Shown: in pieces, positions 12,056-28,069 of the stretch
Numbering within the stretch: position 1 is the stretch's first letter
Layout of the letters: each line of letters begins with the position of its first letter
DNA from: a bacterium
Lineage (GTDB): Bacteria; JACRDZ01; JAQUKH01
NCBI GenBank assembly: GCA_043809805.1
Contig: JBDROR010000247.1
Span: 1 to 39,523 of the forward strand
Direction: 5' to 3'
Length of the DNA: 39,523 nt
Program-made: the position numbers and the translations under genes
Notes under the pieces: generated by a model
Told to the model about the DNA's origin: nothing
The model's input: only the letters and a program-made list of their open reading frames with translations
Databases searched by the model: none

Positions 12056-12162
12056 TGTCATTCCGAGCAGAGCGGTTTGTCATTCCGAACGAAGTGAGGA
12101 ATCTGTCTGTGAAGAAAGATTTCTCCCTTCGGTCGAAATGACAATTGTATGTTCGAAATGCC
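12056..12162. repeat. Cluster of family A repeats (tgtcattccgaacgaagtgaggaatc / ttctcccttcggtcgaaatgaca)
   Basis: The same units recur at 19391-19510, 24845-24917, 26964-27245, 31719-31840 and 33177-33205. Confidence 0.85.
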
Positions 12163-12191
12163 AAATATTTTAACATTAGGAGGATGAGAAT

Positions 12192-13127: not shown

Positions 13128-14066
13128 TTAATTATTAAAATACGCTCCGGCGAATTTCTTATCTTCTTCTTCAGTAAATTCCTGGAACCATCCATATTCA
13201 AAATTATATTTTTCAGCCAGATGAACCGCCTTGTCATATTCATCTCTGGTAATTTTCCTATCCAATTCAGGACACTTTTTTGCCTGATGATAAGGAAAAT
13301 ATTGGCTCATAAGGCTGATAGGTATTTTATTCGAAAAATTTTCGTATATAAATTCAAAAATTGACTCTGACCCGGCAATAGAATTTGGAAGAATTAAATG
13401 GCGGATAATTAACCCTTTTTGCATTATATTATCCTCGTTTATTTCAATATCCCCTGTTTGCTGAAAAATTTCACGGACAGCATTCTGATTAATTTGCGGA
13501 TAATCATACGCCCCTGAATATTGTCTTGAAGACTCTTTATTCGCGTATCGCATATCTACCAGATAAATATCAATTATACCATATAATAACTTAAGAATTT
13601 CTATTTTTTCGTAGCCGCTTGTATTATAAACTATAGGGATAGAAAGTCCGGCCTTTTTTGCCTGATAAATGGATTCCAAAATAAAGGGCAAAAAATGAGT
13701 TGGTGTAACTAAATTTATGTTGTGACACTTTTGGTTTTGGAGCCAGATCATTTTTTGGGCGAGAGTCTCTTTTGATATTTCATCTCCTTCAGATTGCTGG
13801 CTAAAAGGATAATTTTGGCAATATACGCAACGAAGATTGCAGTTAGAAAAAAAAATTGTTCCAGAGCCATATGTCCCGGAAATAGGCGGTTCCTCGCCAA
13901 AATGAGGAAATATGCGGCTGACTTTCAGTTTATATTCTGCCTTGCAAAATCCCTTTTCGCCTTTTTTGCGGTTAACTTTACAATCTCTGGGGCAAAGGAC
14001 ACAAGGATTGGTAAGATTATAAACCTTTTCGATACGGTCAGATAGTTCTGGGAGGGTAATGTTCAT
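13128..14066 (-). CDS. Radical SAM protein, PflX-like (COG1313 type)
   Basis: CNLRCVYCQN is a CX3CX2C cluster motif, with upstream CVLCPRDCKVNR and HFGEEPPISG. The track start at 14084 overlaps tRNA-Cys by 12 nt. The in-frame ATG at 14066 (MNITLPEL) avoids the overlap. Confidence 0.8.
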   Translation of the reverse strand: MNITLPELSDRIEKVYNLTNPCVLCPRDCKVNRKKGEKGFCKAEYKLKVSRIFPHFGEEPPISGTYGSGTIFFSNCNLRCVYCQNYPFSQQSEGDEISKETLAQKMIWLQNQKCHNINLVTPTHFLPFILESIYQAKKAGLSIPIVYNTSGYEKIEILKLLYGIIDIYLVDMRYANKESSRQYSGAYDYPQINQNAVREIFQQTGDIEINEDNIMQKGLIIRHLILPNSIAGSESIFEFIYENFSNKIPISLMSQYFPYHQAKKCPELDRKITRDEYDKAVHLAEKYNFEYGWFQEFTEEEDKKFAGAYFNN

Positions 14067-14072
14067 ATTAAA

Positions 14073-14148
14073 TGGAGGCGGCAATCGGACTTGAACCGAT
14101 GAATAGCGGTTTTGCAGACCGCCGCCTTAGCCACTTGGCTATGCCGCC
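14073..14148 (-). tRNA. tRNA-Cys(GCA): tRNA-Cys (anticodon GCA) with encoded CCA
   Basis: Reverse strand is GGCGGCATAGCCAAGTGGCTAAGGCGGCGGTCTGCAAAACCGCTATTCATCGGTTCAAGTCCGATTGCCGCCTCCA. It has a 7-bp acceptor stem, anticodon loop CTGCAAA, T-arm ATCGG-TTCAAGT-CCGAT and discriminator U73, as expected for Cys. Confidence 0.9.
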
Positions 14149-14189: not shown

Positions 14190-17100
14190 TTATTCCAATC
14201 CCCTTCCGACCTCCCGCATCCTTGGAATATGATAATATTTATAACGGAAAATGGTATCAAACCTGTGGCAATCGGCACACAAGGTAAAATCTTTTTTCCG
14301 CAGGAAACTATTAGAAGCTGTTCCTTCAGTATTTTCCCCCGGCGCATTATTAGGCTTTCCAGCCTCCCATTGATGCGGGTTATGGCACGATCCACAGGAT
14401 ATAATGCCGCTTGTGACCCTGCTCCCGTTGCCTTTATCAAACAATGGAAGAGACCCGGGTTCACGCTCAACGCGCCTTCCTATATTAGTAGCAATAATAT
14501 CTGTAGGATGCGTATCAACCACAGGAATTTTGCCGGCAGCGCGCTGATTTATCGCATGACAGCTCTTACAAAGCATAGACGGCGTTTCAGGGTTTATTTG
14601 TGGTATTTTAGCCCACATAAGAGGCTTTTCAAAGGCATTGTGAGGGATATGGCATGCACTGCATGGCCCGCCTTCCTCCGCTGTTTGATTGATCACATTT
14701 TTTTCAGATGGCGCGGTAATTCTCATATCATGATCCGTGTTAACAACATATTTTTTGTTCGAATGACATGCTGTACACATCTCAGAATTTGTATTGTTTT
14801 CTCTTAAGAAACTATTTTTAATATCCCCTTCGACTTTCATGCCAGGCCCGTTTTCTTTTTTATCGGGATCCCATTGATGAAGGTTGTGACAGGTGGAACA
14901 AAGCACTTTACCCTTTTCCATATCATTGGTTCCCTGCAATGTAAATATGGGGAATGGGGATTCTCCTCTTAACCCCAGAAGGCTAAAATCTATACCGACT
15001 GGATGTGTCGCGCCAAGCTGTTTAGTATTCCCGCACCCGTCTTTATTATGACAGCTGCCGCATAAAGGCGTGATGCTATCAATCCCGTTCCCCTTTTGTT
15101 TTGCCCATAATTTCTCCGCAGAAGCATTATGAGGGACATGGCAGGCGCCGCAAGGACCTGATTCAAAAACGGTCTGTCTAAGCATATTTTTTTCTTCCGG
15201 CGCGGAAATTTTCATATCATGGTCTGTCCCTACAACAAAACCTTGCGGAGTATGACAGTCCCGGCATAAAGTTGCTTCAGGATCGGAAGCAAGCCGCAGA
15301 AAACTATTCAAAGCCGTTCCCTCAATATTTTCTTTAGCGTTTCCTTTTGTATTCCTTTTGGAATCCCAGACATGCGGATCGTGGCAGGAATAGCAATATA
15401 CTTTATTAAATGTAGGAAGTGTTGTTATTCCGTCAACAGTTACAATGGGCGCATTTGTAATAGGTACATTAACCGGATGGGAAAATTGCCCAAGCTGTTT
15501 CTTTTCACCGCATTTATTATTTGAATGGCATGAAAAACAGAATTTGGAAGAAACATCGGCAGTGTCATTGCCGGAAGTATCACCTAATTTCCTTGCCCAA
15601 ATCTTTGGGCCTAATCCATTATGCGCAACATGGCACGGACTGCAAACCCCGCCTGTTTTACGTGTATTATTCTCAAAATTTTTCACCAATGGAGCAGTGT
15701 TCGCGAGGTCATGGTCTGTCCTCTCAACCAGAGCTTGTTTTTCATGGCAATCTTTACACAAATCAGGTGATGGGAAGTTGGATATCCTTAAAAAACTATT
15801 TGTTTGATTCCCCTCTGTATTCTTACGGAGAGATACTTTCTTTTTAGCTGGATCCCAAACATGCGGATCGTGGCATGAGTTGCAATATACATTACCATTT
15901 TCTAAAGATTCACCTTTATCATTAAATAACGGCAGTGTAGAACTCCCATCCGCGTCTGAAATAGGGACAGCCGTTGGATGAGTAAAGGTTTCGACACCGT
16001 CGGTTAATATCTTTTTATCCTCCCCGGGATTCTTCTCGGAGTCGCTTCCGACACTATGACAACTAAAACATAAATTGCCGGACGTATCTTTCCCAATTCG
16101 CGGCACATCCCTTGCCCACATTTTGCGTTCTTTTCCATTATGCGCCAGATGGCAGGCGCTGCATATTCCTCCATCGGAACTCGTTTTCTTCTCAATATTT
16201 TTCGCGTCAGGGGAAATTACAGACATGTCATGTTCGGTATTTTCAATAAAGAATTTGTCTTCATGACAATCTTTGCAAAGGCCGGATTTAGCGTCATTTG
16301 GTTTACGTAAAAAACTATTTGTGAAATCACCTTCTCTATTTTGGCTGAAAGTTGTATCCAGCATGTTTGGATTCCAAACATGCGGATCATGACAGCTTGT
16401 GCAAAAGATATTCCCATCTGCTTTTTGTTGCCCCATCTCATCAAACAAAGGCAGTGAGGCTGTCCCATCGGCTTTTTTTATTGATTTATCCGTTGGATGT
16501 GAATATTTATCAATTGGTTTTTTGCCGGCAGAACCATCCTTATTGTGACAGCTGGTACAAAGCTGTGTGACAAAATCATTTTTACCGGAAAGTTTTTTTG
16601 CCCATCCATGAGAAAAATGGCAGGACCTGCAGATTCCGGACTGTGCTGCCGTTTGGTCCTGAATATTTAGTTCGGCTGGAGCGGTAATAGCTAAGTTATG
16701 GTCGGAATAAATTATGGTTTTTTTATCCTTATGACAGTCCAAACAAATTGATGATTGAACATTTTTCGTAACTAAAAGCGGGGTATCTTTAATCCCCTTG
16801 TGAGGAAGATGACATGTAGCACATATTACTTCCTTGTTTGGGCCAAGAGCCCCCCCTGCCCGGACAATATCTTCAGCAATTTTCACTTTATCTGAAATGA
16901 TGTTAACAGGATGCTTTATCGAGCCTATGGAATCGCGCATTCCACGGATTACTTTATTTTCGTGGCAGATATTACATAACGAGGAGAATTTATTGGCTGT
17001 TAAAAGATTTCGTGTTGCAGGCGCGGAATCATGTATTTTATGACAGCTTTCACAAACCAATCTTCCCTCTACGCCCTTTATTGCGCCTAATGCTAAAAGG

Positions 17101-18368
17101 GTTGTGGAAATTACCGCTTCAGATGGAATTAAATTAATTGGATGTGATCCATTTTCATATTTTGACTCATGACATTTACGGCATAACCCGGAATTTTTAT
17201 TAGAAATAGCCATAATTTTACCGTCAGTTCCATCATTAGCGCTATTATCTGCGGCATTATGAACCTTGTGGCAGCTTTCACATGTGACCAAATTATTTGG
17301 CCCTAGTTTCAAACTTTTGGGGACACTTTCTGGGTGCAATTCGTTAGTTAACAGCATGTTTACAGGATGTGTCCCTGTATTTTTTCCGCCAGTATCTTTA
17401 TTAAGTTTATCCCTATGGCATGTTTCACAGAAAGAGGAATTCACATTGTTGTCCACTAAAAGACGTGTTTCTTTTACCGCAGAGTGCGAAGAATGGCAGG
17501 AAACACATATCAAACTTTTGTCTTTGCCCATATTAGACGGATTTCCGGAATGCCATCGATACGGAATCGACGCCTTTTTTTGAGGAACGTCAACGGGATG
17601 AGAATCATGGCCGGTTCCATCCTTTTTGCCCGGACTATTTGTATGGCACGCCTCACAAAGCTCTGCGGACGTCCCGTCTTTTACCGGAAGCAATAAAAGA
17701 TTTTCCGCTTCGGCGGAATGGATCCTATGACAGCTTTCACAAATTATCTTATTAGGTTTATCCCCGCTGTACGCCCCTGCATCTTTTAGCCCTTTTGAAA
17801 AAGGGAGAGAATCTACATTTATCGGATGCATTCCTTCCTTCGGGCCGCTAACCTTATCCTTATGGCAGTCCATACACATTTCCGAGTTCTTGTTTTCTAC
17901 GCGAAGATAACAGGCGCGTTCCGGCACCACACCATCCTGGATACCTATAGCATGGGCAGTATGACAGCTTCCACAGTCTAATTCACCATAGAAACCATCT
18001 TCATCTTCATATGCGAAATTATTTACAAAATACAAAGGATATTTTTTTGAAATAGCTGCTCTTTCAAATGGAACTACCTTTATTGGATGGGAGATCTTTT
18101 TGCCCCAGACTTTGATGCGGGAATCCACCATAGAGCCGTCATGACAACTATAACAAATCCACTCATCCGCAACATATCGTTTAGCGCCAATATATCGCGG
18201 GATACGATCAGGGTTGTCTTTTTTTGAATGATCAGGATGCCATGCATAATGACAAACAGCACATTCCTGATTGGCGCTTTCAGGCATAACACTTCTGGCC
18301 CAAATTAGTTTTTGGGCAAAAAGCAAACATAGCATCGTTATTAGGAAAAAGGGAAAAAGACGTTTCAT
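14190..18368 (-). CDS. Giant multihaem c-type cytochrome, 34 CXXCH motifs
   Basis: 1392 aa with signal peptide MKRLFPFFLITMLCLLFAQKLIWA. I counted 34 CXXCH by eye. The C-terminal ~780 aa are tandem four-haem modules. Confidence 0.9.
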   Translation of the reverse strand: MKRLFPFFLITMLCLLFAQKLIWARSVMPESANQECAVCHYAWHPDHSKKDNPDRIPRYIGAKRYVADEWICYSCHDGSMVDSRIKVWGKKISHPIKVVPFERAAISKKYPLYFVNNFAYEDEDGFYGELDCGSCHTAHAIGIQDGVVPERACYLRVENKNSEMCMDCHKDKVSGPKEGMHPINVDSLPFSKGLKDAGAYSGDKPNKIICESCHRIHSAEAENLLLLPVKDGTSAELCEACHTNSPGKKDGTGHDSHPVDVPQKKASIPYRWHSGNPSNMGKDKSLICVSCHSSHSAVKETRLLVDNNVNSSFCETCHRDKLNKDTGGKNTGTHPVNMLLTNELHPESVPKSLKLGPNNLVTCESCHKVHNAADNSANDGTDGKIMAISNKNSGLCRKCHESKYENGSHPINLIPSEAVISTTLLALGAIKGVEGRLVCESCHKIHDSAPATRNLLTANKFSSLCNICHENKVIRGMRDSIGSIKHPVNIISDKVKIAEDIVRAGGALGPNKEVICATCHLPHKGIKDTPLLVTKNVQSSICLDCHKDKKTIIYSDHNLAITAPAELNIQDQTAAQSGICRSCHFSHGWAKKLSGKNDFVTQLCTSCHNKDGSAGKKPIDKYSHPTDKSIKKADGTASLPLFDEMGQQKADGNIFCTSCHDPHVWNPNMLDTTFSQNREGDFTNSFLRKPNDAKSGLCKDCHEDKFFIENTEHDMSVISPDAKNIEKKTSSDGGICSACHLAHNGKERKMWARDVPRIGKDTSGNLCFSCHSVGSDSEKNPGEDKKILTDGVETFTHPTAVPISDADGSSTLPLFNDKGESLENGNVYCNSCHDPHVWDPAKKKVSLRKNTEGNQTNSFLRISNFPSPDLCKDCHEKQALVERTDHDLANTAPLVKNFENNTRKTGGVCSPCHVAHNGLGPKIWARKLGDTSGNDTADVSSKFCFSCHSNNKCGEKKQLGQFSHPVNVPITNAPIVTVDGITTLPTFNKVYCYSCHDPHVWDSKRNTKGNAKENIEGTALNSFLRLASDPEATLCRDCHTPQGFVVGTDHDMKISAPEEKNMLRQTVFESGPCGACHVPHNASAEKLWAKQKGNGIDSITPLCGSCHNKDGCGNTKQLGATHPVGIDFSLLGLRGESPFPIFTLQGTNDMEKGKVLCSTCHNLHQWDPDKKENGPGMKVEGDIKNSFLRENNTNSEMCTACHSNKKYVVNTDHDMRITAPSEKNVINQTAEEGGPCSACHIPHNAFEKPLMWAKIPQINPETPSMLCKSCHAINQRAAGKIPVVDTHPTDIIATNIGRRVEREPGSLPLFDKGNGSRVTSGIISCGSCHNPHQWEAGKPNNAPGENTEGTASNSFLRKKDFTLCADCHRFDTIFRYKYYHIPRMREVGRGLE

Positions 18369-18373
18369 TATTC

Positions 18374-18443
18374 TAGTTTTCAGTTGTTAGTTTTCAGTTG
18401 TTAGATAAAAATCTGAAAACTGACGACTGAAAACTGACAACTA
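18374..18443. repeat. Heptamer-based palindromic element
   Basis: tag ttttcag ttgttag ttttcag ttgttag ataaaaat ctgaaaa ctgacga ctgaaaa ctgacaa cta. It fills the whole 72-nt gap between the NHL gene and the 34-haem gene. Confidence 0.85.
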
Positions 18444-19367
18444 CTGTAAACTGAAGACCTCAATAAGGTTGGCAATCATTTCAACCACATAGAGACGATT
18501 AGCATCGTCGACTAAAATTCCGACCGGCGTAATAAAATTCCTGCGATTATCATACTCGTTGTTGATTAAAGAGAGGAGTTCCCCATCCCTATTGAACACT
18601 TGAATCACACCAAGAAAGCTATCGCTTACAAATATTCTGTCCTGTTTATCTATAGTAATACCTTTTGGGCGGTAAAAAGTTCCTTTTTTTATACCCCAAA
18701 AACCTATTTGTCGCAAATAATTCCCGTCCTGATCAAAAACCTGCACACGAGCATTAATAACATCAACTACATAAATTTCACCGTTACTATCGCTTGATAA
18801 CATAAACGGGAACCTGAATTCCCCTTTTCTTCTGCCATTGGCGCCCCACTCTCTTACAAATTCCCCTTTTTTGTCATACACTAAAACCCTGTGGTTATCG
18901 TTGTCTACAATAAAACACTTGTCTTGGACAATAATAATATCCGTAGGATCAGCCGGCACTGTTCCTTCACCTGATTTGAGCGAAAATTGGTATTGGGAAT
19001 TTCCATCAGAATCGAATACCGCAATTCTATGATTTCCAGAATCAGCTACGTAAACTTTCCCATCGGTATCTACGGCAATTCCAAGAGGAGACATCAATTC
19101 TCCGGATTGACTGCCTTTTACACCAAATTCTTTAATGAATTCACCCTTTTGATTAGTGACTACAACTCTGTGATTTACCCCGTCGAGTATATATAGGCTT
19201 CCGCCTGGGCCGACAGCTATGTCGCTTGGTTGGTTTAAAGGTGCAGAGTCAGGGCCTTTAATTTCAGAAAGAAAACGGACTTTTATGGAAGTTTCTTCTC
19301 CAAGTACATAAACACTCTTCGTGAGAAGAAGTATAAAAAAAAGGAGGGCAAATTTTTTTTTAAACAT
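18441..19367 (-). CDS. Secreted NHL-repeat beta-propeller protein
   Basis: 308 aa with a signal peptide. There are about six repeats of the type P.GIAVD..G.iYVaD..NhRv.VFd..G. Confidence 0.85.
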   Translation of the reverse strand: MFKKKFALLFFILLLTKSVYVLGEETSIKVRFLSEIKGPDSAPLNQPSDIAVGPGGSLYILDGVNHRVVVTNQKGEFIKEFGVKGSQSGELMSPLGIAVDTDGKVYVADSGNHRIAVFDSDGNSQYQFSLKSGEGTVPADPTDIIIVQDKCFIVDNDNHRVLVYDKKGEFVREWGANGRRKGEFRFPFMLSSDSNGEIYVVDVINARVQVFDQDGNYLRQIGFWGIKKGTFYRPKGITIDKQDRIFVSDSFLGVIQVFNRDGELLSLINNEYDNRRNFITPVGILVDDANRLYVVEMIANLIEVFSLQ

Positions 19368-19390
19368 GTTTTCCGCACAACTTATTATAT

Positions 19391-19623
19391 TGTCATTTCG
19401 ACCACACCACTTGTGTCATTTCGACCGACTATTTTTGTCATTTCGACCGAAGGGAGAAATCTTTCTTCTCGCAGAAGACAGATTCCTCGCTCCCGCTCGG
19501 AATGACAACACTTCACTCAGAATAACAACATTCGGGGCGACCGCAAAGGCCGCCCCTACAAATTTCCCCACAACCCACAACACATCCACACAACAATAGG
19601 GCGATTCATGAATCGCCCCTACA
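19391..19623. repeat. Composite repeat block (family A units, then two family B hairpins)
   Basis: tgtcatttcgacc occurs three times, followed by gaagggagaaatct and agattcctcgctcccgctcggaatgaca. Then come ggggcgaccgcaaaggccgcccctaca and tagggcgattcatgaatcgcccctaca. Confidence 0.85.
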
Positions 19624-19624
19624 A

Positions 19625-20446
19625 TTACATACCCTTTTTAGTCCCGAAGAGACTACTCGGAATATAAAACCTGCCATATCGCCCGATAATTCCCGCGGCT
19701 TCAGTTCCGACTAGTTGGTCCATACGCGCTTCTGAATATCCAAGGGCTTTGAAAGATAGAACACTTTTAACACGATGACAATCTGTGCAATCCAATCCGG
19801 GATTAGATACTGCCTGATGTATGCGTCCTTTGATTATTCCTTGTTGACTGGTAGTCAACCTGCCCTGCATGGATACGAAAGGTCTGGCAAATTTTTCATC
19901 ATCCATCCGCATAGTTATCATTTTAAAACGTCCGTTTTCTTCAACATACGGCGTAATTAAAGGGGCACTGCCCCTTCCGGTAATCTCTTCATCAAAAGCA
20001 GAAATAAGCTGGTTAACATAAGGTTTTATCCTTATCAAGGGTTCTACTTTTCTTTCCCCTTTTTTTAACTCTGCTATACTGGCACTGCTTCCGTCAAACC
20101 ATCGATACCCGCTAATTCCGCCCTTTACATCTTTTACATGACAGGCATTGCAGTCTGTAAACGGAATATGAAAATTAAGCATAGCCCTTGTAACCTTATT
20201 TTTTGCATGGGGCATATCTCCATGACAAAGAACGCAAATCAAAGGATTTTGATCCTCGAAAGGGGCAGCATCTCCTTCTGTTTTGTTATGAAAATGGAAC
20301 TGCCGGGATTCCTTTTCGTTTACAATAAGTTTTTCTGTTAGCAGAATGTGATCCTCTCCTGACTTAATAGGTGCAACAAACGCCAACGCCACAGCGGAAA
20401 CCACAGCCACGGCCGCGCTTATCAATACATTACGTTTCTGCATCAT
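19625..20446 (-). CDS. Trihaem c-type cytochrome with an N-terminal anchor or signal
   Basis: 273 aa with CVLCH, CNACH and CTDCH. Hydrophobic N-terminus VLISAAVAVVSAVALAFV. SD-like AAGGGGGGT lies upstream. Confidence 0.75.
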   Translation of the reverse strand: MMQKRNVLISAAVAVVSAVALAFVAPIKSGEDHILLTEKLIVNEKESRQFHFHNKTEGDAAPFEDQNPLICVLCHGDMPHAKNKVTRAMLNFHIPFTDCNACHVKDVKGGISGYRWFDGSSASIAELKKGERKVEPLIRIKPYVNQLISAFDEEITGRGSAPLITPYVEENGRFKMITMRMDDEKFARPFVSMQGRLTTSQQGIIKGRIHQAVSNPGLDCTDCHRVKSVLSFKALGYSEARMDQLVGTEAAGIIGRYGRFYIPSSLFGTKKGM

Positions 20447-20471
20447 ATCCTACCCCCCTTTTCTTAAACTT

Positions 20472-20624
20472 AACCACAGAGAACACGGAGAAACCCTCCC
20501 TCTGTGTCCTCAAATTTAATCTTTTTATACCGTTTTTTAGCATTTCCACATTGCTCTTACCAAACCCAACTTACAACTGAGAACACTGAGAAATTCCTAG
20601 CTTTTCTCTGTGATCTCTGTGGTT
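20472..20624. repeat. Inverted repeat block of cacagagaacacggagaaa-type units
   Basis: aaccacagagaacacggagaaa at 20472-20493 pairs with tttctctgtgatctctgtggtt at 20603-20624 (20 of 22 complementary). Related internal units are ctccctctgtgtcctc and actgagaacactgagaaa. Confidence 0.8.
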
Positions 20625-20638
20625 CATTTTTTATTTCC

Positions 20639-21436
20639 TCATGTTTCTCTCTTTTCTTTTGCCACAATTTCATCATACCACATTTTACGCTCATGTATCA
20701 TTTCTTCTTCTGTCATTTTCCCTGTAATCCATGATTTAATCATTGGAAAATTTTCAGGGACAAAATGAACATTATAAAAATGGAATGTAAAAATAAAGAT
20801 AGTCGCCAAAAATGCCTCATAACTATGAATTGTAATACATACTGTCATCCACCACCAAGGCATGAAGGACATAACAAATTCCCTGAACAACAAGCACACA
20901 CCCGTGAGGCCGATCATTATTGTGCCAAATATGACGGCAAGATAATCAATTTTTTCCGCGTAAGCCCATTTTTTTAAGGCTGGCGGTTCCTTCTTTGTCC
21001 CAAAAAAATATCTAAACTTGTCGGCTATATCCCTACCATCTTTAGCCGATGGACACAAAGCAAGATCCCCCGTTTTCAACCTTGAAAAAAAGTTTTTAAA
21101 AGGGTTCCACCCTTCATGTATCCACCTGAAGATCAAATAACCAAAATGATAAACAGTTAATAACAAGCTCAAAATTCCACAAATACGGTGTATTACCGGT
21201 GCTATTTCCGGTCCGCCAAAGAGCATAAACAAAGGTTTAGAGTACGGCATATGCGGAAATTTTTGGGGCATTCCAGTCGCTATTAAAATCAAAAATGTAA
21301 CAGTCAAAACCAAATGCTGAATAATTTGATTAACAGTCAATCTTTGAAACAGCCTCGGCCCCCCGGTTCTCGCCGGCTTAGGGCTCGCCACCCCGGAACT
21401 CGCCCCCATGGGGCTCGTGCAACCAGAATATTCCAT
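20639..21436 (-). CDS. Membrane b-type cytochrome, FdnI/HydC-like
   Basis: 265 aa. The start of the fold, RLTVNQIIQHLVLTVTFLILIATGMPQKF, is typical. There are four to five TM segments with conserved His residues. AGGAG lies 8 nt upstream. Confidence 0.65.
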   Translation of the reverse strand: MEYSGCTSPMGASSGVASPKPARTGGPRLFQRLTVNQIIQHLVLTVTFLILIATGMPQKFPHMPYSKPLFMLFGGPEIAPVIHRICGILSLLLTVYHFGYLIFRWIHEGWNPFKNFFSRLKTGDLALCPSAKDGRDIADKFRYFFGTKKEPPALKKWAYAEKIDYLAVIFGTIMIGLTGVCLLFREFVMSFMPWWWMTVCITIHSYEAFLATIFIFTFHFYNVHFVPENFPMIKSWITGKMTEEEMIHERKMWYDEIVAKEKRET

Positions 21437-21475
21437 GATCCAACTCCTTTCAATCCCCCGACAGGAGACTTTTCA

Positions 21476-22642
21476 TCATTTTTTAGACGGCCCAAGTATT
21501 TTTCTCAACAAATCTAAAGTAATCATAGTAAGGGCAAAAGCCAATACAAGGTAAACCAACCAGAAATAAACTTCACTTAGAATGGTTAACCCAAGATAAT
21601 CCCTTGTGTCAATATGCGCAACTGAACGAGCAAAGGATTTAGATTCTTTGGCTTTCGGGTGACAAATATCAATACTGCATGTTTTTACCAGATTATCTTT
21701 TTCTTTCTTAAAATGTCTGCCTTCTGTAATATAAACCGCTGAACTTTCAAAACCAGGTTTCCCCTCTTTATTGCTTAATAATTCATGTATCCCCGCTCCT
21801 CCGCCTGACGCACGGTCTGGGTCCATTGGATAATTGACTTTGGTATGACAATCAGCGCATCCAGCCCATCTTTCTCCACCATGATAAACCATTTTATAAT
21901 GAAATGTTTTTTCATATTCCGTAACCGGCGCGGAACTGAGTTTGTGTCTTTTCATCATATCGTCATTACCATGACAGTCAACACAAAGTTGAACCGCCTG
22001 ATATTTGGTTCTGCTGGTCTTCATATCAAAACGATGTTTTGTATGGCGGTAAAATCTAGCGGAATAGTTGTCCTTGTGACACCCACGGCATCTTTTCAGC
22101 TGAAAATCATTAACCAGTGGTATTTCACTTCCCACTCTTTCATAAACCGGGTTTTCACTATGACAGTACACACAATATGGCGCGTCCTTATCTTGTTTTT
22201 CCGGCGGTATTTCTCTGTCAGCTATACCGTGAACACTTTCTTTATAAGCATTATAGACATTTTGATGAGAGAAATATTTTTTATCGTTTGAATCATTCGC
22301 CCGGGATGGTTCAATTACGCTGTGGCATACCGAGTTACAGTGAACCTTTTCTGTAATTAACGGCTGGTGAGGAACTTTTGGTTCGTTCCCTTCCATAATA
22401 TAAGTATGACAGTCTACGCACCTGACATTTCCATGAACACTTCTGGTAATAAAAATATCCTCTTCTATATAAAAATTCCTTTTTATTCCTTTCTCGTTCA
22501 TCCGGATAAAACCGGGATGGTCATGACATACCATACAGCCATCCGGATCGGCCGCCGCGGAACTTTGATGTTCGTAAAAAATACATATGAAGGTTAATAC
22601 AAATAACGCGAAAACGCCCCTAACAAAATTTTTTCTATTCAA
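21476..22642 (-). CDS. Multihaem c-type cytochrome (6 CXXCH plus CX3CH and CX4CH variants) with a C-terminal TM anchor
   Basis: 388 aa with CMVCH, CVDCH, CVYCH, CRGCH, CVDCH, CADCH, CNSVCH and CSIDICH. The C-terminal segment is LTILSEVYFWLVYLVLAFALTMITL. TTG start with GGGGGTGA upstream. Confidence 0.8.
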   Translation of the reverse strand: MNRKNFVRGVFALFVLTFICIFYEHQSSAAADPDGCMVCHDHPGFIRMNEKGIKRNFYIEEDIFITRSVHGNVRCVDCHTYIMEGNEPKVPHQPLITEKVHCNSVCHSVIEPSRANDSNDKKYFSHQNVYNAYKESVHGIADREIPPEKQDKDAPYCVYCHSENPVYERVGSEIPLVNDFQLKRCRGCHKDNYSARFYRHTKHRFDMKTSRTKYQAVQLCVDCHGNDDMMKRHKLSSAPVTEYEKTFHYKMVYHGGERWAGCADCHTKVNYPMDPDRASGGGAGIHELLSNKEGKPGFESSAVYITEGRHFKKEKDNLVKTCSIDICHPKAKESKSFARSVAHIDTRDYLGLTILSEVYFWLVYLVLAFALTMITLDLLRKILGPSKK

Positions 22643-22648
22643 GATTTC

Positions 22649-22730
22649 ACCCCCTTGTTTCCTCCCCCCTTGTGGGGGAAGATTAAGGTGGGGGATGTAA
22701 TTTCAATCACTCTTACCCCTCACCCTGCCT
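22649..22730. repeat. C/G-tract hairpin repeat
   Basis: tcctcccccc-ttgt-gggggaaga followed by aaggtggggga and accctcaccctgcc. Its minus-strand copy supplies the SD for the upstream-reading cytochrome gene. Confidence 0.6.
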
Positions 22731-22800
22731 TTCCTCAAATTAACAAAAAAACAGCATTGATATTAACATAATAACAGTTCTTATGTCAATAAGGAAAAAA

Positions 22801-22989
22801 CTAGTGCGACCGAACTGTCAATATCGAGCCATCAAACAATTTTATTAAATGAACAATTCCAACAAAAAGAAAAAACGCGCCGAGCAAAGATACTATTCCC
22901 CCGCTCGTCAGACAAAGATACCCGCCGACTACGTAAGATACCGTTAGTAACCATACACATATGACTTGCAAAAATTTTTCTATATTCAA
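22801..22989 (-). CDS. Small two-TM membrane protein (62 aa)
   Basis: TTG start with AAGGGGGG about 6 nt upstream. Two hydrophobic helices. It lies inside the cytochrome operon. Confidence 0.45.
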   Translation of the reverse strand: MNIEKFLQVICVWLLTVSYVVGGYLCLTSGGIVSLLGAFFLFVGIVHLIKLFDGSILTVRSH

Positions 22990-23010
22990 GTATATCCCCC
23001 CCTTCCGTAG

Positions 23011-23080
23011 TAGTTGTTAGTTTTCAGTTGTTAGTTGTCAGATAAAAATCTAAAAACTGAAAACTAACAACTGAAAACTA
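23011..23080. repeat. Second copy of the heptamer-based palindromic element
   Basis: tag ttgttag ttttcag ttgttag ttgtcag ataaaaat ctaaaaa ctgaaaa ctaacaa ctgaaaa cta. It uses the same heptamers and the same ATAAAAAT centre as 18374-18443. Confidence 0.85.
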
Positions 23081-23082
23081 AT

Positions 23083-24723
23083 TTACTTCAATCCCCTCCC
23101 CGTATGGCACACCTGACATAACAATCCGTCTTTTTTAACTAAACGCAGTTTGTCCGGCTCATCCGCGCCTTTCGCTCCTGCTCCCCACGGGATGATTCCC
23201 TTTTCGTGGGGATTATGACATGTTACACATGTTACATTTTCTTCCCCATCCATTGGAAAAAATACATTCTGTTCAATTTCATAAACACTTTTTCTCTTTT
23301 GCATATCGGCAGATACCCGTTTCATATGATCTTTTTGCCCTGGATGGAATTTATCCCTGTGGCAGCGCACACATAAATCTGCCATAGGAGCGACAAAATT
23401 ACTGGAATCCTGCTTTTGCATCTTAACTTTTCTATCAGGCTGGACGCGATGACAATATAAACAAACGCCTTCCCGCACAATTCCTCTGGAATCTATCTGA
23501 TCATGAACATTATATTTTATATACGCGTCGCGTTCATGGCAATCGAAACATATATCGCTACGGTATTGATATGGCCCGCCGCGAAGGAATATCTTATTAT
23601 TTTTTTTAACTTCTTTTTTATTTTCTATCTGACAGTCCGCGAGATGGCAAGTGAGGCAAGTAATTTTTCCGTCAAAAAGCCTAAGTTTTTTTGGGTTATG
23701 CCTGCCCGGGATATCCACTGAAACATTAACCGGATGGAAATCCGCGGTTCTCCAGGGGAACTCATCTTTATGGCAACGCATACAAGCATCCACCACATTA
23801 CCACCAAATCTAATATTCGAAACGCCCTTTACAGGCTCTTCCGTATGACAAGTTACGCAAAAAGCATTTTTAAAATGAGGGTTTATTTTTTTAGATTCAT
23901 TTGCTAATTCTTCATATCCTGAATTAACAAAATGTCCTTTTTGGGAATAACCGTGGACATCATGGCAAGTCACACATTCCGGATCTTCTTTCAAATCCGA
24001 ATAGGGGTTCACATCTTTATAGTGTTCAGGACTTAATTCATTGTGGCAAAAATGACATATATTTTCTGTTTTCTGCCGTAGGGGCGATTCGGTGAATCGC
24101 CCTGTTGGGCGACCCAGCGGGTCGCCCCTACTTCCGACATGACAAAATTCACACGGAGACATATCTCCCTTATGAGGGATGCGCGACGCAACCCTGTCTC
24201 CATGGCAACTTTTGCAAAATGATTCGCGATTTTGGAAAACAGGCTCGAAATCAAACGCGCTTTTTGGAAAACCCCTGAGCAGATAAAAGTTACCTATACC
24301 GGCATGAAGGTCATGGCAGGTGGAACAGATGATAGCGCCCGTTCCACTTCCGTATTTCCCTATGGGGAAGATGTCTGGAATAGACATAGGTTTTTCTATT
24401 TTTCTGGCATCCACCCCTGTCGGATGGAGGCTCGTTTTTTTATGACAGCTTTCGCATAAGCTTATTTCATCAAACCAGAATGTACCCGCCCACGTCCGAA
24501 GCTCTTCTTCCGTCGAACCTGGTATAGGCCTTTGTTTGTGACAACTCTCACAACTTACCCCAAGATGCGGTTCAGACACTTCTTCAAATAAAGGCTTCGG
24601 TTGCGCCTCTGGTTCTTCTATAACAATTTTTTCATCGTATTCTCCCTCAGCCGCACAGAACGACAAAAGAGAGAAAAAATATAAAACAAAAATAACGAAA
24701 GAGATCAGACGCGAATTTTTCAT
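23083..24723 (-). CDS. Multihaem c-type cytochrome, 15 CXXCH motifs
   Basis: 546 aa with signal peptide MKNSRLISFVIFVLYFFSLLSFCAA. I counted 15 CXXCH motifs. Confidence 0.85.
   Translation of the reverse strand: MKNSRLISFVIFVLYFFSLLSFCAAEGEYDEKIVIEEPEAQPKPLFEEVSEPHLGVSCESCHKQRPIPGSTEEELRTWAGTFWFDEISLCESCHKKTSLHPTGVDARKIEKPMSIPDIFPIGKYGSGTGAIICSTCHDLHAGIGNFYLLRGFPKSAFDFEPVFQNRESFCKSCHGDRVASRIPHKGDMSPCEFCHVGSRGDPLGRPTGRFTESPLRQKTENICHFCHNELSPEHYKDVNPYSDLKEDPECVTCHDVHGYSQKGHFVNSGYEELANESKKINPHFKNAFCVTCHTEEPVKGVSNIRFGGNVVDACMRCHKDEFPWRTADFHPVNVSVDIPGRHNPKKLRLFDGKITCLTCHLADCQIENKKEVKKNNKIFLRGGPYQYRSDICFDCHERDAYIKYNVHDQIDSRGIVREGVCLYCHRVQPDRKVKMQKQDSSNFVAPMADLCVRCHRDKFHPGQKDHMKRVSADMQKRKSVYEIEQNVFFPMDGEENVTCVTCHNPHEKGIIPWGAGAKGADEPDKLRLVKKDGLLCQVCHTGRGLK
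24078..24131. repeat. 54-nt double-hairpin family B repeat inside the 15-haem cytochrome CDS
   Basis: gtaggggcgattcggtgaatcgccctgttgggcgacccagcgggtcgcccctac. It spans 18 codons in frame and encodes roughly GSRGDPLGRPTGRFTESPL between two haem motifs. Confidence 0.8.
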
Positions 24724-24844
24724 TATTAAGGAAACCTAATCCTGCTAAGGATTGTAGCATAAAACAAATTTCTAAGTCAATAAAAAAATTGACCTTGGAC
24801 ATTCCACTTTAGACAGCAGCATTGCTTTACTAAACCCAACTTAT

Positions 24845-24917
24845 TGTCATCCCGGGCGGTTCCTTATTATTTCAGCATTTTCCAATCCTTGTCATTCCGA
24901 ACGAAGTGAGGAATCTT
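24845..24917. repeat. Family A repeats in the divergent promoter region
   Basis: tgtcatcccgggcggttcc and tgtcattccgaacgaagtgaggaatcttatacta. The second unit recurs at 27188-27220 with the same tail. Confidence 0.8.
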
Positions 24918-25022
24918 ATACTAGTGAGACTATCGTTACATGTTTTACAGTATTTTGTTATGGGGCAAATTCTTTAAATTTAAGATTGCTTTTTCTCTGC
25001 AATTTGATATTCTCATTATGTT

Positions 25023-26903
25023 ATGTATATTTATCCTAAAAATTACGATTGTGTCATTGTAGGCGCCGGCCACGCGGGATGCGAAGCCGCGCTTGCGTGT
25101 GCACGCATGGGGATGGAAACACTCCTTTTGACGACTAATATTGATAGTATCGCGTTGATGCCCTGTAATCCTGCTATTGGCGGATTGGCTAAAGGACATT
25201 TGGTAAAAGAGATAGATGCTTTGGGTGGTGAAATGGCAAAGGTTACTGATAAGACAGGAATTCAATTCAAGATTTTGAATAAAAGCAGGGGGCCGGCCGT
25301 TCAATCTCCCCGCGCGCAGTCTGATAAATTGGAATACAGACTGGAAATGACAAAGATTTTAGAAAATCAGGAAGGATTAGATATAAAACAAGGGTTGGTG
25401 GAAGAAATATTGGTTCACAGGAGTGTCCACGGAAGTGTTCACGGCAATAAAGTAAAAGGCGTAAGGACTGATATGGATATTATGTATCGGTCAAAGGCAC
25501 TAATTATCTGTACAGGAACGTTTTTAAATGGATTAGTTCACGTTGGGTTAACATCTTTTCCAGCCGGTAGAATGATTGAGTTTCCATCAAACGGTTTGGC
25601 AAAAAGTTTAAATAAACTAGGCTTTCGCTTGGGAAGATTAAAAACCGGGACTAATCCAAGGCTTGATAGCAGGAGTATTGATTTTTCAAAGACAACCTCT
25701 CAATATGGTGATATCCCCCCTACCCCATTTTCTTATTGGACAAAGTCAATATCTCGGGAACAATTACCCTGTTTTTTAACATATACCAACAAAAAAACAC
25801 ATAAAATTATTTTGAATAATCTCAAAAGATCCCCTCTTTACTCGGGGAGAATAAAAGGCATAGGGCCACGGTATTGTCCATCCATAGAGGATAAGGTCGT
25901 TAGGTTTCCGGATAAAGAGAGGCACCAGATATTTCTTGAACCGGAAGGCAGGGAAACAACAGAAATTTACGCGAATGGTATTTCAACAAGCCTCCCTTCT
26001 GATATTCAGCTCAGATTTCTACGCACAATAGAAGGATTGGAAAACGCTGAAATAATAAGGCCTGGCTACGCTATAGAATATGATTTTGTTTATCCTGATC
26101 AAATAAAATTAAATTTAGAAACAAAATTAATTGAAGGTCTTTTCTTAGCGGGCCAGATAAATGGGACATCAGGATACGAAGAAGCGGCAGCTCAAGGACT
26201 AATGGCAGGCATAAATGCGGTTTTAAAGATAAAAAAGGAAAACCCTTTCATTTTAAACAGATCAGAGGCATATATTGGGGTTTTAATAGATGATTTGGTT
26301 ACGAAAGAGATATTCGAACCATATAGGATGTTTACTTCAAGGGCAGAATATAGACTAATATTGAGAATAGACAACACTGACCAAAGATTAATGGGTTATG
26401 GGAACAAATTAGGATTGATTTCTAATGCAAATTACAAAAATTTTAACAAAAAAATGGAAAAAATAGAAAAACTCAAAGGAATACTATGCAAAATTGACAA
26501 GAAACAATATAATATTCCAAAGAAACCGGAAAATGTTACATTGACGCAATATTTAAAAAGACCGGAAGCGCGTTTGATGGATATTGTAGGGGCAATTCAT
26601 GAATTGCCCTTACACAAATTTGACTCCGACGTTATAAATCAAGTCGAAATTCAAATAAAATATGAAGGATACATAAACAGACAGGCATTACAGGTTAAAA
26701 AATTTAAAAACTTAGAAAGTAAATTAATCCCGGACAATTTTGATTATAGCAAAATAACTAGTTTTTCCTGTGAAGCAAAAGAACTATTGTTAAAAATAAA
26801 GCCAAGGTCAATAGGCCAAGCATCAAGAATAACTGGTGTTACCCCTGCGGATGTGGATGTTTTAATGATTTATTTAAAGAAAATACAAAAATGTTCCACG
26901 TGA
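25023..26903 (+). CDS. mnmG: tRNA uridine 5-carboxymethylaminomethyl modification enzyme MnmG (GidA)
   Basis: 626 aa with the FAD motif YDCVIVGAGHAGCEAALACARMG. Also GPRYCPSIEDK and the C-terminal GQASRITGVTPADV. Confidence 0.95.
   Translation: MYIYPKNYDCVIVGAGHAGCEAALACARMGMETLLLTTNIDSIALMPCNPAIGGLAKGHLVKEIDALGGEMAKVTDKTGIQFKILNKSRGPAVQSPRAQSDKLEYRLEMTKILENQEGLDIKQGLVEEILVHRSVHGSVHGNKVKGVRTDMDIMYRSKALIICTGTFLNGLVHVGLTSFPAGRMIEFPSNGLAKSLNKLGFRLGRLKTGTNPRLDSRSIDFSKTTSQYGDIPPTPFSYWTKSISREQLPCFLTYTNKKTHKIILNNLKRSPLYSGRIKGIGPRYCPSIEDKVVRFPDKERHQIFLEPEGRETTEIYANGISTSLPSDIQLRFLRTIEGLENAEIIRPGYAIEYDFVYPDQIKLNLETKLIEGLFLAGQINGTSGYEEAAAQGLMAGINAVLKIKKENPFILNRSEAYIGVLIDDLVTKEIFEPYRMFTSRAEYRLILRIDNTDQRLMGYGNKLGLISNANYKNFNKKMEKIEKLKGILCKIDKKQYNIPKKPENVTLTQYLKRPEARLMDIVGAIHELPLHKFDSDVINQVEIQIKYEGYINRQALQVKKFKNLESKLIPDNFDYSKITSFSCEAKELLLKIKPRSIGQASRITGVTPADVDVLMIYLKKIQKCST
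26586..26613. repeat. Family B hairpin inside the mnmG CDS
   Basis: gtaggggcaattc-at-gaattgcccttac, encoding VGAIHELPLH in the MnmG C-terminal linker. Confidence 0.75.
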
Positions 26904-26907
26904 AACA
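26892..26907. promoter_or_regulatory. parS: parS site (ParB binding site)
   Basis: TGTTCCACGTGAAACA fits the consensus TGTTNCACGTGAAACA. The mnmG stop codon TGA lies inside it. Confidence 0.75.
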
Positions 26908-26936
26908 TTTGAACGCCAATTGGCAATCTCAAAAAA

Positions 26937-26952
26937 TGTTTCACGTGGAACA
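26937..26952. promoter_or_regulatory. parS: parS site, inverted copy
   Basis: TGTTTCACGTGGAACA is the exact reverse complement of the first site, 29 nt downstream of it. Confidence 0.75.
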
Positions 26953-26963
26953 TTGTAAGACAT

Positions 26964-27245
26964 TGTCATTCCGAACGGTGTAGGGGCGGCTCCCTGTGGC
27001 CGCCCATTTGTAGGAGCGACCCGTTGGGTCACCCAAAATAGGACGATTCACCGAATCACCCCGACATAAAAGGGCAGGCACGGGGACCTGCCCCTACGGA
27101 AGAAAAATTTCTCCCTTTGGTCGAAATGACAGTTGTGCGGTCAAGTTATCATTTCTAACGGACTTTGTCACTTTGAACGGTTTTTTTGTCATTCCGAACG
27201 AAGTGAGGAATCTTATACTAACAAATTGTGTGGTCGAAAGGACAA
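26964..27245. repeat. Large composite block of family A and family B repeats
   Basis: The block runs: tgtcattccgaacgg; then gtaggggcggctccctgtggccgccc, gtaggagcgacccgttgggtcaccc, ggacgattcaccgaatcacc and gggcaggcacggggacctgcccctac; then ttctccctttggtcgaaatgaca; then tgtcattccgaacgaagtgaggaatc. Confidence 0.85.
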
Positions 27246-27560
27246 TATAATAAGTCTCAGTGCAGAAAAAACAAAGTTCGTATTTGCTCGTATTGTATAG
27301 ATTTTACGAAATGCCTGTCGAGTGAATTTCTTTATTTTTATTGACTTAGATAAAATACTGGTTTAAAATTATTACGATAAATTCAAATTGGCAAATTCTA
27401 AATCCAGATGATTATAAAAAAACTCTTAAATGCTCTATTGGGTATCGTATCAAAATTAATAAACATAAGAAGGAATAATACTCTTTAACAAATCAACAGT
27501 GGCTTTTCTAGTCCTAATTTCAGGCGTTCGCACTCGCCGTTAAAAATAAAAAGAAAGATA

Positions 27561-27588
27561 TTGACAAAAGGTATATATAAGGTATAAT
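27561..27588 (+). promoter_or_regulatory. Consensus sigma70 promoter: TTGACA, 16-nt spacer, TATAAT
   Basis: TTGACA at 27561-27566 and TATAAT at 27583-27588. The brnT ATG is at 27598, so the leader would be only a few nt. Confidence 0.55.
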
Positions 27589-27597
27589 TATTATATC

Positions 27598-27861
27598 ATG
27601 GAATTTGAGTTTGATTCTCGAAAAAGTATTAGTAATAAAAAAAAACACGGGATTGATTTCTATGAAGCACAGATATTATGGGATGATTCTAATATAATTG
27701 AGATTCCATTAAAAACCAGCGATGAACCAAGATATTTAGTTATTGGTAAGATATTAGAAAAATGTTGGTCGGGTATTGTTACTTATAGAAATTATAAAAT
27801 AAGAATTATTTCGGTCAGAAGATCAAGAAAAGAGGAGATTGATATATATGAAAGCACATGA
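27598..27861 (+). CDS. brnT: BrnT-family toxin (DUF497)
   Basis: MEFEFDSRKSISNKKKHGIDFYEAQILWDD...IRIISVRRSRKEE is the classic BrnT pattern. Confidence 0.8.
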   Translation: MEFEFDSRKSISNKKKHGIDFYEAQILWDDSNIIEIPLKTSDEPRYLVIGKILEKCWSGIVTYRNYKIRIISVRRSRKEEIDIYEST

Positions 27862-28069
27862 ACTTGACAAAAAATTTGATGAGGGTGAAGATATTGCCAG
27901 ACACCTTGATTTGTCGAAGGCAAAAAGATCCGCACAGGAGCAAAAAAGGGTAAATGTAGATTTTCCTTTATGGATGATCCATTTATTAGACAGAGAATCA
28001 AAACGTTTAGGTGTTCCTCGGCAGTCGGTTATCAAAGTCTGGGTAGCAGAACGACTTGGGAAAGCATAA
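27848..28069 (+). CDS. brnA: BrnA-like ribbon-helix-helix antitoxin
   Basis: RVNVDFPLWMIHLLDRESKRLGVPRQSVIKVWVAERL. The track start is TTG 27839, but ATG 27848 is better placed after GAGGAG at 27832-27837. Confidence 0.7.
   Translation: MKAHELDKKFDEGEDIARHLDLSKAKRSAQEQKRVNVDFPLWMIHLLDRESKRLGVPRQSVIKVWVAERLGKA

Follow-up and report, generated by a model that had tools for sequence, protein, structure and literature searches.

Clusters of multihaem cytochrome genes tied to a cytochrome b and to NHL-repeat proteins are already known, and the module that we describe here has been seen, unanalysed, in Deferribacter, where a '19-gene multihaem cluster' was noticed and metal reduction was suggested (PMC13186404, PMC6896113). 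We analysed a seven-gene cluster of this kind (genes A to G) on contig JBDROR010000247.1 of the bacterial assembly GCA_043809805.1, a stretch of 39,523 nucleotides that we refer to as the window. In the reading that we prefer, to which we give a little better than an even chance, a membrane complex of the bc type linked to the quinone pool (C, D and E) would feed a single-chain haem wire, the giant cytochrome G, with the NHL propeller F as its partner.

Six of the seven genes are orthologous to genes of the Deferribacter cluster and stand in the same order; the 19-gene cluster itself was noted in four genomes (D. desulfuricans, D. autotrophicus, D. abyssi and D. thermophilus). In D. autotrophicus, the collinear orthologues are A' (10 haems), C' (6+2 haem motifs and a C-terminal transmembrane (TM) helix), the cytochrome b D', E' (3 haems), the propeller F' and G'; the BLAST E-values lie between 1e-20 and 1e-101. 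Deferribacter has a longer cluster, with two more cytochromes (13 and 8 haems), a TPR protein and a second NHL protein. It also lacks B, and its G has 28 haems compared with 34 here. A histidine kinase and a sigma-54 response regulator lie downstream of it, as seen in D. autotrophicus; in the window, we found neither a regulator gene adjoining the cluster nor a sigma-54 -24/-12 site upstream of A.

The second close likeness is to OmcE, a monomer of ~220-230 amino acids that polymerises outside the cell via an inter-subunit His-haem bond. The five C-terminal modules of G and the last four haems of A share with it four CXXCH motifs, four histidines and the same flanking signatures; here, however, the modules of G lie within one chain of 1392 amino acids. 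A minimal omcE cluster comprises OmcE, a large beta-barrel, and two each of multihaem cytochromes and propeller lipoproteins (10.1101/2025.10.22.684050), whereas the present cluster has one propeller that is not a lipoprotein, no beta-barrel, and an attached bc complex.

Other described systems share parts of this composition. The nearest characterised counterpart in architecture, by which it is compared here, is Geobacter CbcBA (GSU0593/GSU0594), one of the Cbc-type quinol:cytochrome c oxidoreductases of the inner membrane. It likewise places a dihaem cytochrome b beside a multihaem cytochrome c with a C-terminal TM anchor and, as proposed here for C-D-E, is proposed to connect the quinone pool with periplasmic cytochromes (10.1101/2021.04.15.440034), but CbcA is a heptahaem protein whereas C has eight haem motifs, the trihaem subunit E is additional, and the sigma-54/BccR regulator or promoter was not found here. 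The Uet cluster of 'Ca. Tenderia electrophaga' and Gallionella, compared by description, resembles ours in the NHL proteins UetH/I, the undecahaem UetJ with doubled CXXCH motifs, and trihaem cytochromes (10.1101/2022.05.06.490989, PMC10734462). It differs in the beta-barrel UetC, a peptidyl-prolyl isomerase and a cupredoxin, in having no cytochrome b among its 18 conserved genes, and in a largest cytochrome of 11 haems compared with 34 in G. In proteobacterial relatives of our cluster, the NHL, 11-haem and ResB/CcsA genes that follow G resemble the NHL, undecahaem and CcsAB part of Uet. Porin-cytochrome complexes (MtrCAB/MtoAB, Pcc and PCC3; PMC5566968) share very haem-rich cytochromes and a putative dihaem b membrane protein, and both they and the present cluster occur in Fe(II) oxidisers; they are, however, defined by an adjacent porin gene, which is absent here. 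PCC3 cytochromes have medians of 21 and 34 haems (PMC5566968), but they are low-complexity proteins with a high content of T, S, A and G. The membrane protein of PCC3, with five helices and a pair of HX13H motifs, is unlike FdnI. We rejected membership of PCC3 because of these differences in gene order, in the type of membrane protein and in the need for a porin. Finally, the clusters DFE_0448-0451 and DFE_0461-0465 of D. ferrophilus IS5, likened by description, combine multihaem cytochromes and NHL propellers with no apparent porin, and their propellers have been proposed to stabilise a cytochrome complex (PMC5815863, PMC9769857), but no cytochrome b has been described for them. For the analogy with anammox electron-transfer modules drawn in the original prediction, we found no homologue pointing in that direction, and we dropped it.

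All seven open reading frames (ORFs) lie on the minus strand between 24723 and 14190, with the coordinates and the common orientation previously proposed, and the predicted total of 58 CXXCH motifs was recovered as 15 in A, 6 in C, 3 in E and 34 in G:

Gene A, 23083..24723, minus strand: secreted c-type cytochrome of 546 amino acids with 15 CXXCH motifs.
Gene B, 22801..22989, minus strand: protein of 62 amino acids with two hydrophobic segments, predicted to be TM.
Gene C, 21476..22642, minus strand: protein of 388 amino acids with 6 CXXCH motifs plus CX3CH (residue 102) and CX4CH (residue 322).
Gene D, 20639..21436, minus strand: FdnI-type dihaem cytochrome b of 265 amino acids.
Gene E, 19625..20446, minus strand: protein of 273 amino acids with 3 CXXCH motifs and an N-terminal TM anchor.
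E-F spacer, 19368..19624, minus strand: 257 bp filled by repetitive extragenic palindromic (REP)-like repeats.
Gene F, 18441..19367, minus strand: secreted six-bladed NHL beta-propeller of 308 amino acids.
Gene G, 14190..18368, minus strand: protein of 1392 amino acids with 34 CXXCH motifs.
N-terminal part of G (residues 1-551), 16716..18368, minus strand: signal peptide and seven dihaem modules (14 haems).
C-terminal part of G (residues 552-1392), 14190..16715, minus strand: five OmcE-like tetrahaem modules (20 haems) and the RYKYYH tail.

Signal peptide-like hydrophobic N-termini were found in A, C, E, F and G. The start of G in the NCBI annotation (1365 amino acids) drops this signal peptide, which is restored by the ATG at 18368 (the stretch concerned is 18288-18368). 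None of these five proteins has a convincing lipobox; only A carries an atypical L-S-F-C, and the Cys is not present at that position in a sister metagenome-assembled genome (MAG; GCA_028719205.1). In G and A, which have Sec-type signal peptides, we found no sorting signal.

We then considered the membrane proteins C, D and E, scoring conservation in 57-70 homologues per protein (70 for C and 67 for D). C has an N-terminal signal peptide and a C-terminal TM helix at ~residues 358-383. Because both variant motifs and eight further distal histidines outside the motifs are, like the six CXXCH motifs, conserved in 97-100% of the homologues, C is probably an octahaem protein, in which case the whole cluster would hold 60 c-haem sites and two b haems. 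No NCBIfam model matched C, a single-sequence search of the PDB with it returned only noise, and the family profiles of C and E gave only weak local motif matches in the PDB (NrfH/NrfB; octahaem Otr, 1sp3). The assignment of D as FdnI-like held up well. It matched PF01292 (Ni_hydr_CYTB) with 34.2 bits (cut-off 30.1) and TIGR01583 below the cut-off, and its family profile aligned over the full length of E. coli FdnI (1kqf_C; E = 1.2e-14, positions 13-248 against residues 3-214), covering the four-helix domain. Three hydrophobic segments of D were scored and a fourth was read by eye, matching the four helices of FdnI. Four histidines (His41, His83, His204 and His219) do not vary among the homologues and a fifth, His97, is kept in 96% of them, so that the conserved TM histidines would be enough for two predicted b haems. 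In E, the three CXXCH motifs are accompanied by His53, His80, His93 and His210, which are invariant among homologues. E had no significant Pfam match; a local dihaem motif links it to 1sp3, the octahaem tetrathionate reductase (E = 6.7e-6), and it matched TIGR04315 below the cut-off. An exhaustive HMMER search of 1.84 billion proteins placed the E family in 304 clusters at 50% identity.

Natural fusions indicate that these three proteins belong together. Among the 150 best representatives of the E family, 23 are at least 450 amino acids long, and all six of these long relatives that we inspected are fusions: D-E (P0250, P0268 and P0272), C-E (P0255) and C-D-E (P0284 and P0296). Their helix topology is consistent throughout: the C part is periplasmic with a C-terminal helix going into the cytoplasm, the D part has four helices with both termini cytoplasmic, and the N-terminal helix of the E part returns the chain to the periplasm. 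Because of these fusions and their topology, C, D and E most likely form one complex, predicted to hold 11 periplasmic c haems and two membrane b haems.

In G, the signal peptide is followed by seven dihaem 'paired-CXXCH' modules, which reach to ~residue 551, and then by five tetrahaem modules, each ~165 residues long. Pfam recognised Paired_CXXCH_1 (192 bits). The haems are densely packed in sequence, with 36-41 residues per haem in A and G. Against its 34 haems, G has 38 free histidines, and the family alignment retains two extra histidines per dihaem module (CxxCH..H and HP(V/I)N) and four per tetrahaem module. Because the conserved histidines suffice in each module, every haem of G can be bis-His ligated, judging from the alignment. 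A search of the PDB with the single sequence of G gave no match. By contrast, the best PDB matches of the G-family profile were 7tfs_A (E = 3.4e-12) and 9yuq_N (1.5e-9), and a module profile built from 26 tetrahaem modules found the same two (E = 3.2e-8 and 3e-8, respectively), with far lower scores for other multihaem cytochromes in the PDB. These entries are the OmcE nanowires of G. sulfurreducens (7TFS; PMC12954529) and Desulfuromonas soudanensis (9YUQ; 10.1101/2025.10.22.684050).

The alignments between the module and OmcE take in the surroundings of all four motifs, and apart from a single short and weak match they are collinear. The shared context of motif 1 is TxHD(L)...CxxCHxPHN..(P)LW.R, and those of motifs 2-4 are CxSCH, LPLF..CxSCHxxH...FLR and LCxxCH. 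The invariant positions of the module profile (A5) are H6, C29xxCH33, H36, C60xxCH64, H90, C122xxCH126, H129 and C164xxCH168. In OmcE, the mature chain starts near ..NTKHDL and ends directly after the fourth CXXCH, and in the filaments a neighbouring subunit provides the histidine for one interfacial haem (PMC9473688, PMC12954529). The last CXXCH of every module of G is followed, 11-12 residues on, by a histidine; His557, His713, His886, His1050 and His1213 are the TxHD histidines of the next module, and His1380, after the last CXXCH, is invariant and lies in the conserved C-terminal RYKYYH tail. From this arrangement we infer that the tetrahaem part of G resembles five OmcE subunits fused head-to-tail, in which the interface histidine would be provided in cis and the terminal one would be built in. 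With the rise of 34 Å per four haems of OmcE (PMC12954529), a linear arrangement would give an estimated ~17 nm for the modules and ~12 nm for the other 14 haems, or 25-30 nm in total. The earlier idea that the long cytochrome may itself span the envelope or form a wire thus found support for its wire-like features, in the OmcE-collinear modules and the histidines available for all haems; a span across the envelope is hypothetical.

Regarding A, Pfam matches were to Mtrc-MtrF_II-IV_dom (76 bits) and Paired_CXXCH_1, and the single-sequence PDB search gave no match. Residues 410-543 aligned with the G module profile (hhalign probability 96%, E = 1.4e-9), which identifies the last four haems of A, at the level of sequence profiles, as an OmcE-like module; the chain ends six residues past its final CXXCH. 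A-like genes with 8-15 haems commonly precede C in related loci. B was found only in the window and in the sister MAG, where the homologue is 64.5% identical with a ratio of nonsynonymous to synonymous substitution rates (dN/dS) of ~0.24, and it thus appears to be under purifying selection. B is absent from the NCBI annotation, which has no accession slot between A and C, and is preceded by a strong Shine-Dalgarno sequence, GGAAGGGGGGG. By its distribution, B is lineage-specific and lies outside the conserved core.

F matched NHL with 107.4 bits (cut-off 20) and the six-bladed propeller family DUF5128 with 80 bits, and its sequence shows six blades of the form D..N.R(I/V)..F(D/N)..G. Orthologues of F with 37-50% identity lie directly upstream of G-like genes at most loci, including Ca. 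Firestonebacteria, and proteins in which an NHL part is fused to a multihaem part were also found (P0111-P0117).

To place the cluster among other genomes, we examined homologous loci. Word-indexed searches with D returned four homologues only, one of them in the sister MAG, in which all seven genes are present in the same order. The order [A-like]-C-D-E-F-G is also found in a more distant uncultured bacterium (L029). A scan with the G-family alignment, using one genome per species, yielded at least 549 G-like stretches, and the locus counts that follow refer to the best 77 of these loci. The strictly contiguous order C-D-E-F-G was found at 25 of them and C-D-E together with G at 23 more, making 48 of 77, while F adjoins G at 15. 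The hosts include unclassified MAGs, Desulfobacterales ('Deltaproteobacteria'), Nitrospirota, Gallionellaceae, Sideroxydans, Sulfurimicrobium and Thiobacillus, as well as Sulfuricella, Sedimenticola, Thiohalobacter and Thiogranum. Contrary to the earlier view, the composition of the cluster is therefore not unusual: the module is widespread and had already been noticed in Deferribacter (PMC13186404). That it is one conserved functional unit is supported by the recurrence of the order across phyla and by the natural fusions of C, D and E. In the literature that we searched, we found no description of a fusion-backed C-D-E complex, of the wide spread of the ordered module, or of a tandem-OmcE reading with histidines in cis.

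Two variations of the module are worth recording. In betaproteobacterial Fe/S oxidisers (L055, 12877-18056; also L031, L033, L051 and L079), it is duplicated as C-D-E, C-D-E; after these come G (22-24 haems), another NHL gene and an 11-haem cytochrome gene, and in L055 also ResB/CcsA. The sister MAG contains a second giant cytochrome (L025, 8217-17338) of 2526 amino acids with 37 CXXCH motifs, which is preceded by a 7-haem protein with three TM segments and adjoins Mrp/Nuo antiporter-like subunits with 12 TM segments and a NosD-like beta-helix, with no porin.

As the presence of an outer-membrane component would matter for any route across the envelope, we also looked for beta-barrels. No ORF in the window is beta-barrel-like, in line with the earlier observation that a porin gene is missing, and none was found at the two G-like loci of the sister MAG or in the surroundings of the cluster in L007, L029, L016, L011, L014 and L055, where the flanks carry TPR, F5/8-type-C, NosD-like beta-helix, ResB/CcsA and housekeeping genes. 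A heuristic scan of the 77 loci did produce candidates, confined to some proteobacterial loci and L015: unannotated secreted proteins of 540-620 amino acids, most of which end in an aromatic residue, in L059, L062, L072 (proteobacterial) and L015, and a similar one of 589 amino acids with a C-terminal Leu in L042. None of the candidates had a Pfam match, and they may be new beta-barrels. A BamB-like propeller gene follows the candidate in L072 (1746-3488, the pair within 1746-4569) and in L042 (417-3337), and a 16-haem cytochrome gene follows that in L015 (13462-15087). Some versions of the module may thus include an outer-membrane component, while, as far as can be read from its genes, the version in the window does not. 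Matches of G and A to the MtrA/DmsE family TIGR03508 (106 and 50.5 bits) were both under the cut-off of 192.2.

Taken together, the preferred reading can be laid out as follows. D would exchange electrons with (mena)quinol or quinone in the cytoplasmic membrane. C, through its C-terminal helix, and E, through its N-terminal helix, would form an 11-haem platform on the periplasmic face that carries the electrons on. G would then conduct them over tens of nanometres, its tetrahaem modules receiving the inter-subunit histidine of OmcE in cis from the next module or the tail; a linear wire of ~25-30 nm would be enough to span a periplasm. F, a nearly constant companion of G, would probably dock, scaffold or help to assemble it, and A, with its 15 haems, could be a further soluble carrier or an end piece. 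The sequences themselves show the gene content, the conserved motifs, the kinship of D with FdnI, the fusions of C, D and E, the synteny and the collinear profile match to OmcE; the electron path, the linear shape and location of G, the role of F and the cis-ligation are what we infer. Electrons could flow in either direction, since the cluster occurs in Fe(III) reducers as well as in oxidisers of Fe(II) or S.

Several observations weigh against this reading. The link to OmcE comes from sequence profiles with moderate E-values in Cys/His-rich sequence. AlphaFold2 (AF2) models of G residues 560-1392 (833 amino acids; predicted local distance difference test (pLDDT) 87.2, predicted template modelling score (pTM) 0.76) and 716-1052 (337 amino acids; pLDDT 83.7, pTM 0.80), both haem-less and coil-rich, gave nothing below E = 4 in Foldseek searches of the PDB; we read this as a limit of the method for such models and not as evidence for a new fold. 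Because A has only 12 conserved free histidines for its 15 haems, some of these haems may be something other than plain relays with bis-His ligation. There are strong hairpins in the E-F gap, and the cluster family is known here from its genes. In addition, deletions of NHL-associated cytochromes in D. ferrophilus had no Fe(III)-oxide phenotype (PMC9769857), a comparison in which the deleted genes are likened to those of the window by description and not by orthology.

A more specific form of the preferred reading would make G a natural single-chain nanowire: five OmcE-type subunits fused head-to-tail behind a 14-haem lead, with the His-haem bond of the filament re-formed in cis and a C-terminal 'stopper' histidine, aided by the NHL protein and seated on an undescribed C-D-E complex, the whole being a widespread wire across the periplasm, largely independent of porins and common to metal reducers and to oxidisers of iron and sulphur. 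We put this forward tentatively, as an idea with more chance of being wrong than right. If it were true, polymerising OmcE nanowires could have arisen from the module or given rise to it, and the OmcE-like 'open' end of A could dock or polymerise onto G via His-haem cross-ligation.

A different possibility, which we regard as unlikely, is that the cluster encodes, as originally proposed, a complete trans-envelope extracellular conduit, with G and/or A reaching the surface, by way of an outer-membrane component encoded elsewhere or with no porin at all, to reduce or oxidise minerals directly. In its favour, homologous clusters are found in Fe(III)-reducing Deferribacter and in many lineages of Fe(II) oxidisers, the modules of G resemble an extracellular nanowire subunit, and A has MtrC/MtrF-type domains. 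Porin-less multihaem-NHL clusters have moreover been proposed as outer-membrane complexes in D. ferrophilus (PMC5815863), and some proteobacterial relatives have the candidate beta-barrel genes mentioned above. However, we found no beta-barrel, secretion or sorting signal in the window, the loci of the sister MAG or the clusters of the closest relatives, and G and A lack a convincing lipobox. G also carries its own terminal histidine and is therefore unlikely to polymerise as OmcE does, and the lack of an Fe(III) phenotype in the D. ferrophilus deletions counts here as well.

The very high haem load of A and G, the bis-His ligation that is possible for all haems, the missing porin and the occurrence of the cluster in organisms of very different respiratory lifestyles would also suit a periplasmic store or hub, a 'capacitor' in which ~60 haems would buffer electrons of the quinone pool for a number of periplasmic reductases or oxidases, with no wiring over long distances. 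We consider this rather improbable, since ordered OmcE-like head-to-tail modules and a dedicated propeller exceed what storage needs, even if 'capacitor' and 'wire' are not mutually exclusive.

Still less probable, in our view, is a periplasmic redox enzyme in which F or a haem of A without bis-His ligation would act on a soluble substrate such as a nitrogen or sulphur oxyanion, the cytochromes serving just to deliver electrons. NHL and SGL-type propellers do include enzymes, and F has weak matches to lactonase, arylesterase and Vgb-lyase families; the histidine shortfall of A and the dihaem motif that E shares with 1sp3 point the same way. Those matches of F are, however, far below the curated cut-offs, and its conserved residues are those of the generic NHL blade motif. 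No catalytic multihaem family of Pfam or NCBIfam matched above its cut-off (NrfB/NrfA and Otr were far below), no CXXCK or other unusual catalytic motif was found in the cluster proteins, and the cluster contains no molybdopterin, Fe-S or copper subunit. Unlike A, the proteins C, E and G have enough conserved distal histidines for each of their haems, so that the special active-site haem of enzymes such as NrfA, HAO/ONR, MccA or Otr was not recognised in them.

Lastly, that these are unrelated neighbours in separate transcription units seems barely credible, since the gaps of up to 257 bp, the two strong hairpins after E and the consensus promoter matches inside the cluster, which occur at chance frequency, stand against an order and orientation kept from this lineage to Deferribacterota and Proteobacteria, the fusions of C, D and E and of NHL with multihaem proteins, and an E-F spacer that owes its length to a REP insertion absent in the sister MAG.

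The intergenic gaps range from 39 bp (C-D) to 257 bp (E-F). The E-F spacer contains two G+C-rich hairpins and three copies of GGTCGAAATGACA; in the sister MAG, it is 78 bp long and the REP-element insertion is absent. Over the window, GGTCGAAATGACA occurs 15 times compared with 1.05 expected, and the REP-like family also includes TGTAGGGGCG...CGCCCC hairpins, is mostly intergenic and extends into the starts of several spurious-looking ORFs. We therefore rejected the hairpins after E as terminators: because they belong to a family found across the window, and because the spacer is short in the sister MAG, they are no evidence for two operons. The spacer may attenuate transcription or stabilise the mRNA, but it is probably just an insertion. 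A sigma-70-like promoter candidate precedes the start codon of A by 27 nt; the 32 promoter-like sites in the region are not above the 26.8 ± 5.7 expected by chance. The corresponding features are:

Sigma-70-like promoter candidate, 24751..24780, minus strand: TTGACT-18-TACAAT with TG, a consensus match.
REP-like repeats: 12056-12163, 19391-19619, 24890-24902, 26964-27244, 31734-31839 and 33177-33189.

The flanks of the cluster are housekeeping in character (gidA, rsmG, parA/parB, V-type ATPase, acs and tRNA-Cys). GidA of the window has four relatives, labelled 'bacterium', at 81-87% identity. Beyond these the matches reach only 59-63%, the named ones being mostly Nitrospirota and some Nitrospinota, and the host lineage is therefore deep and unclassified. 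The cluster adjoins gidA-rsmG-parA-parB in the window (24724-35665) and lies between gidA and recF-dnaN-dnaA in the sister MAG (L001, 1-20765); these neighbours place it near the replication origin. The sign of the GC skew changes near 24-26 kb. G contains 72 Cys codons, and a tRNA-Cys(GCA) gene (14073-14148, minus strand) begins 41 nt beyond its end; as this adjacency is not syntenic in the sister MAG, we rejected it as meaningful, and it is probably a coincidence.

Elsewhere in the window, a small multihaem cytochrome ORF (4392-5030, plus strand; 212 amino acids, Paired_CXXCH_1) follows an ORF with a weak HAMP match (3835-4380). Its first ~40 residues look like a translated REP element, and the true start is probably further downstream. 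Defence-like or mobile genes are found at 769-3358, 6395-9923 and 29840-30856 (RloB with an AAA_21 ATPase, DUF4062 and toxin-antitoxin-like pairs), and a YhcG-type PDDEXK nuclease gene, not there in the sister MAG, lies between rsmG and a DUF7847 gene. An AMMECR1-family gene (33248-33889, labelled after the syntenic gene of the sister MAG) and a radical-SAM gene (13128-14084, from a Pfam scan in the window) are ~19 kb apart; that they belong to an AmmeMemoRadiSam system is a guess from their translations.

How electrons cross a periplasm of ~25-30 nm is still unclear in most metal-respiring or metal-oxidising bacteria outside Shewanella and Geobacter. If the preferred reading is true, a single gene module would represent a hard-wired answer, in which a membrane complex of the bc type comes with its own wire of 22 to 35 haems, in bacteria ranging from Deferribacter to Gallionellaceae, Thiobacillus, Desulfobacterales, Nitrospirota and several unclassified lineages. 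The orthologues in cultured Deferribacter species make this hypothesis directly testable, and the E family, having no significant Pfam match, is a candidate for a marker set in metagenome annotation. Polymerising OmcE nanowires and giant multihaem proteins would then share one building block, which would bear on the evolution of cytochrome filaments and on the design of protein wires of fixed length.

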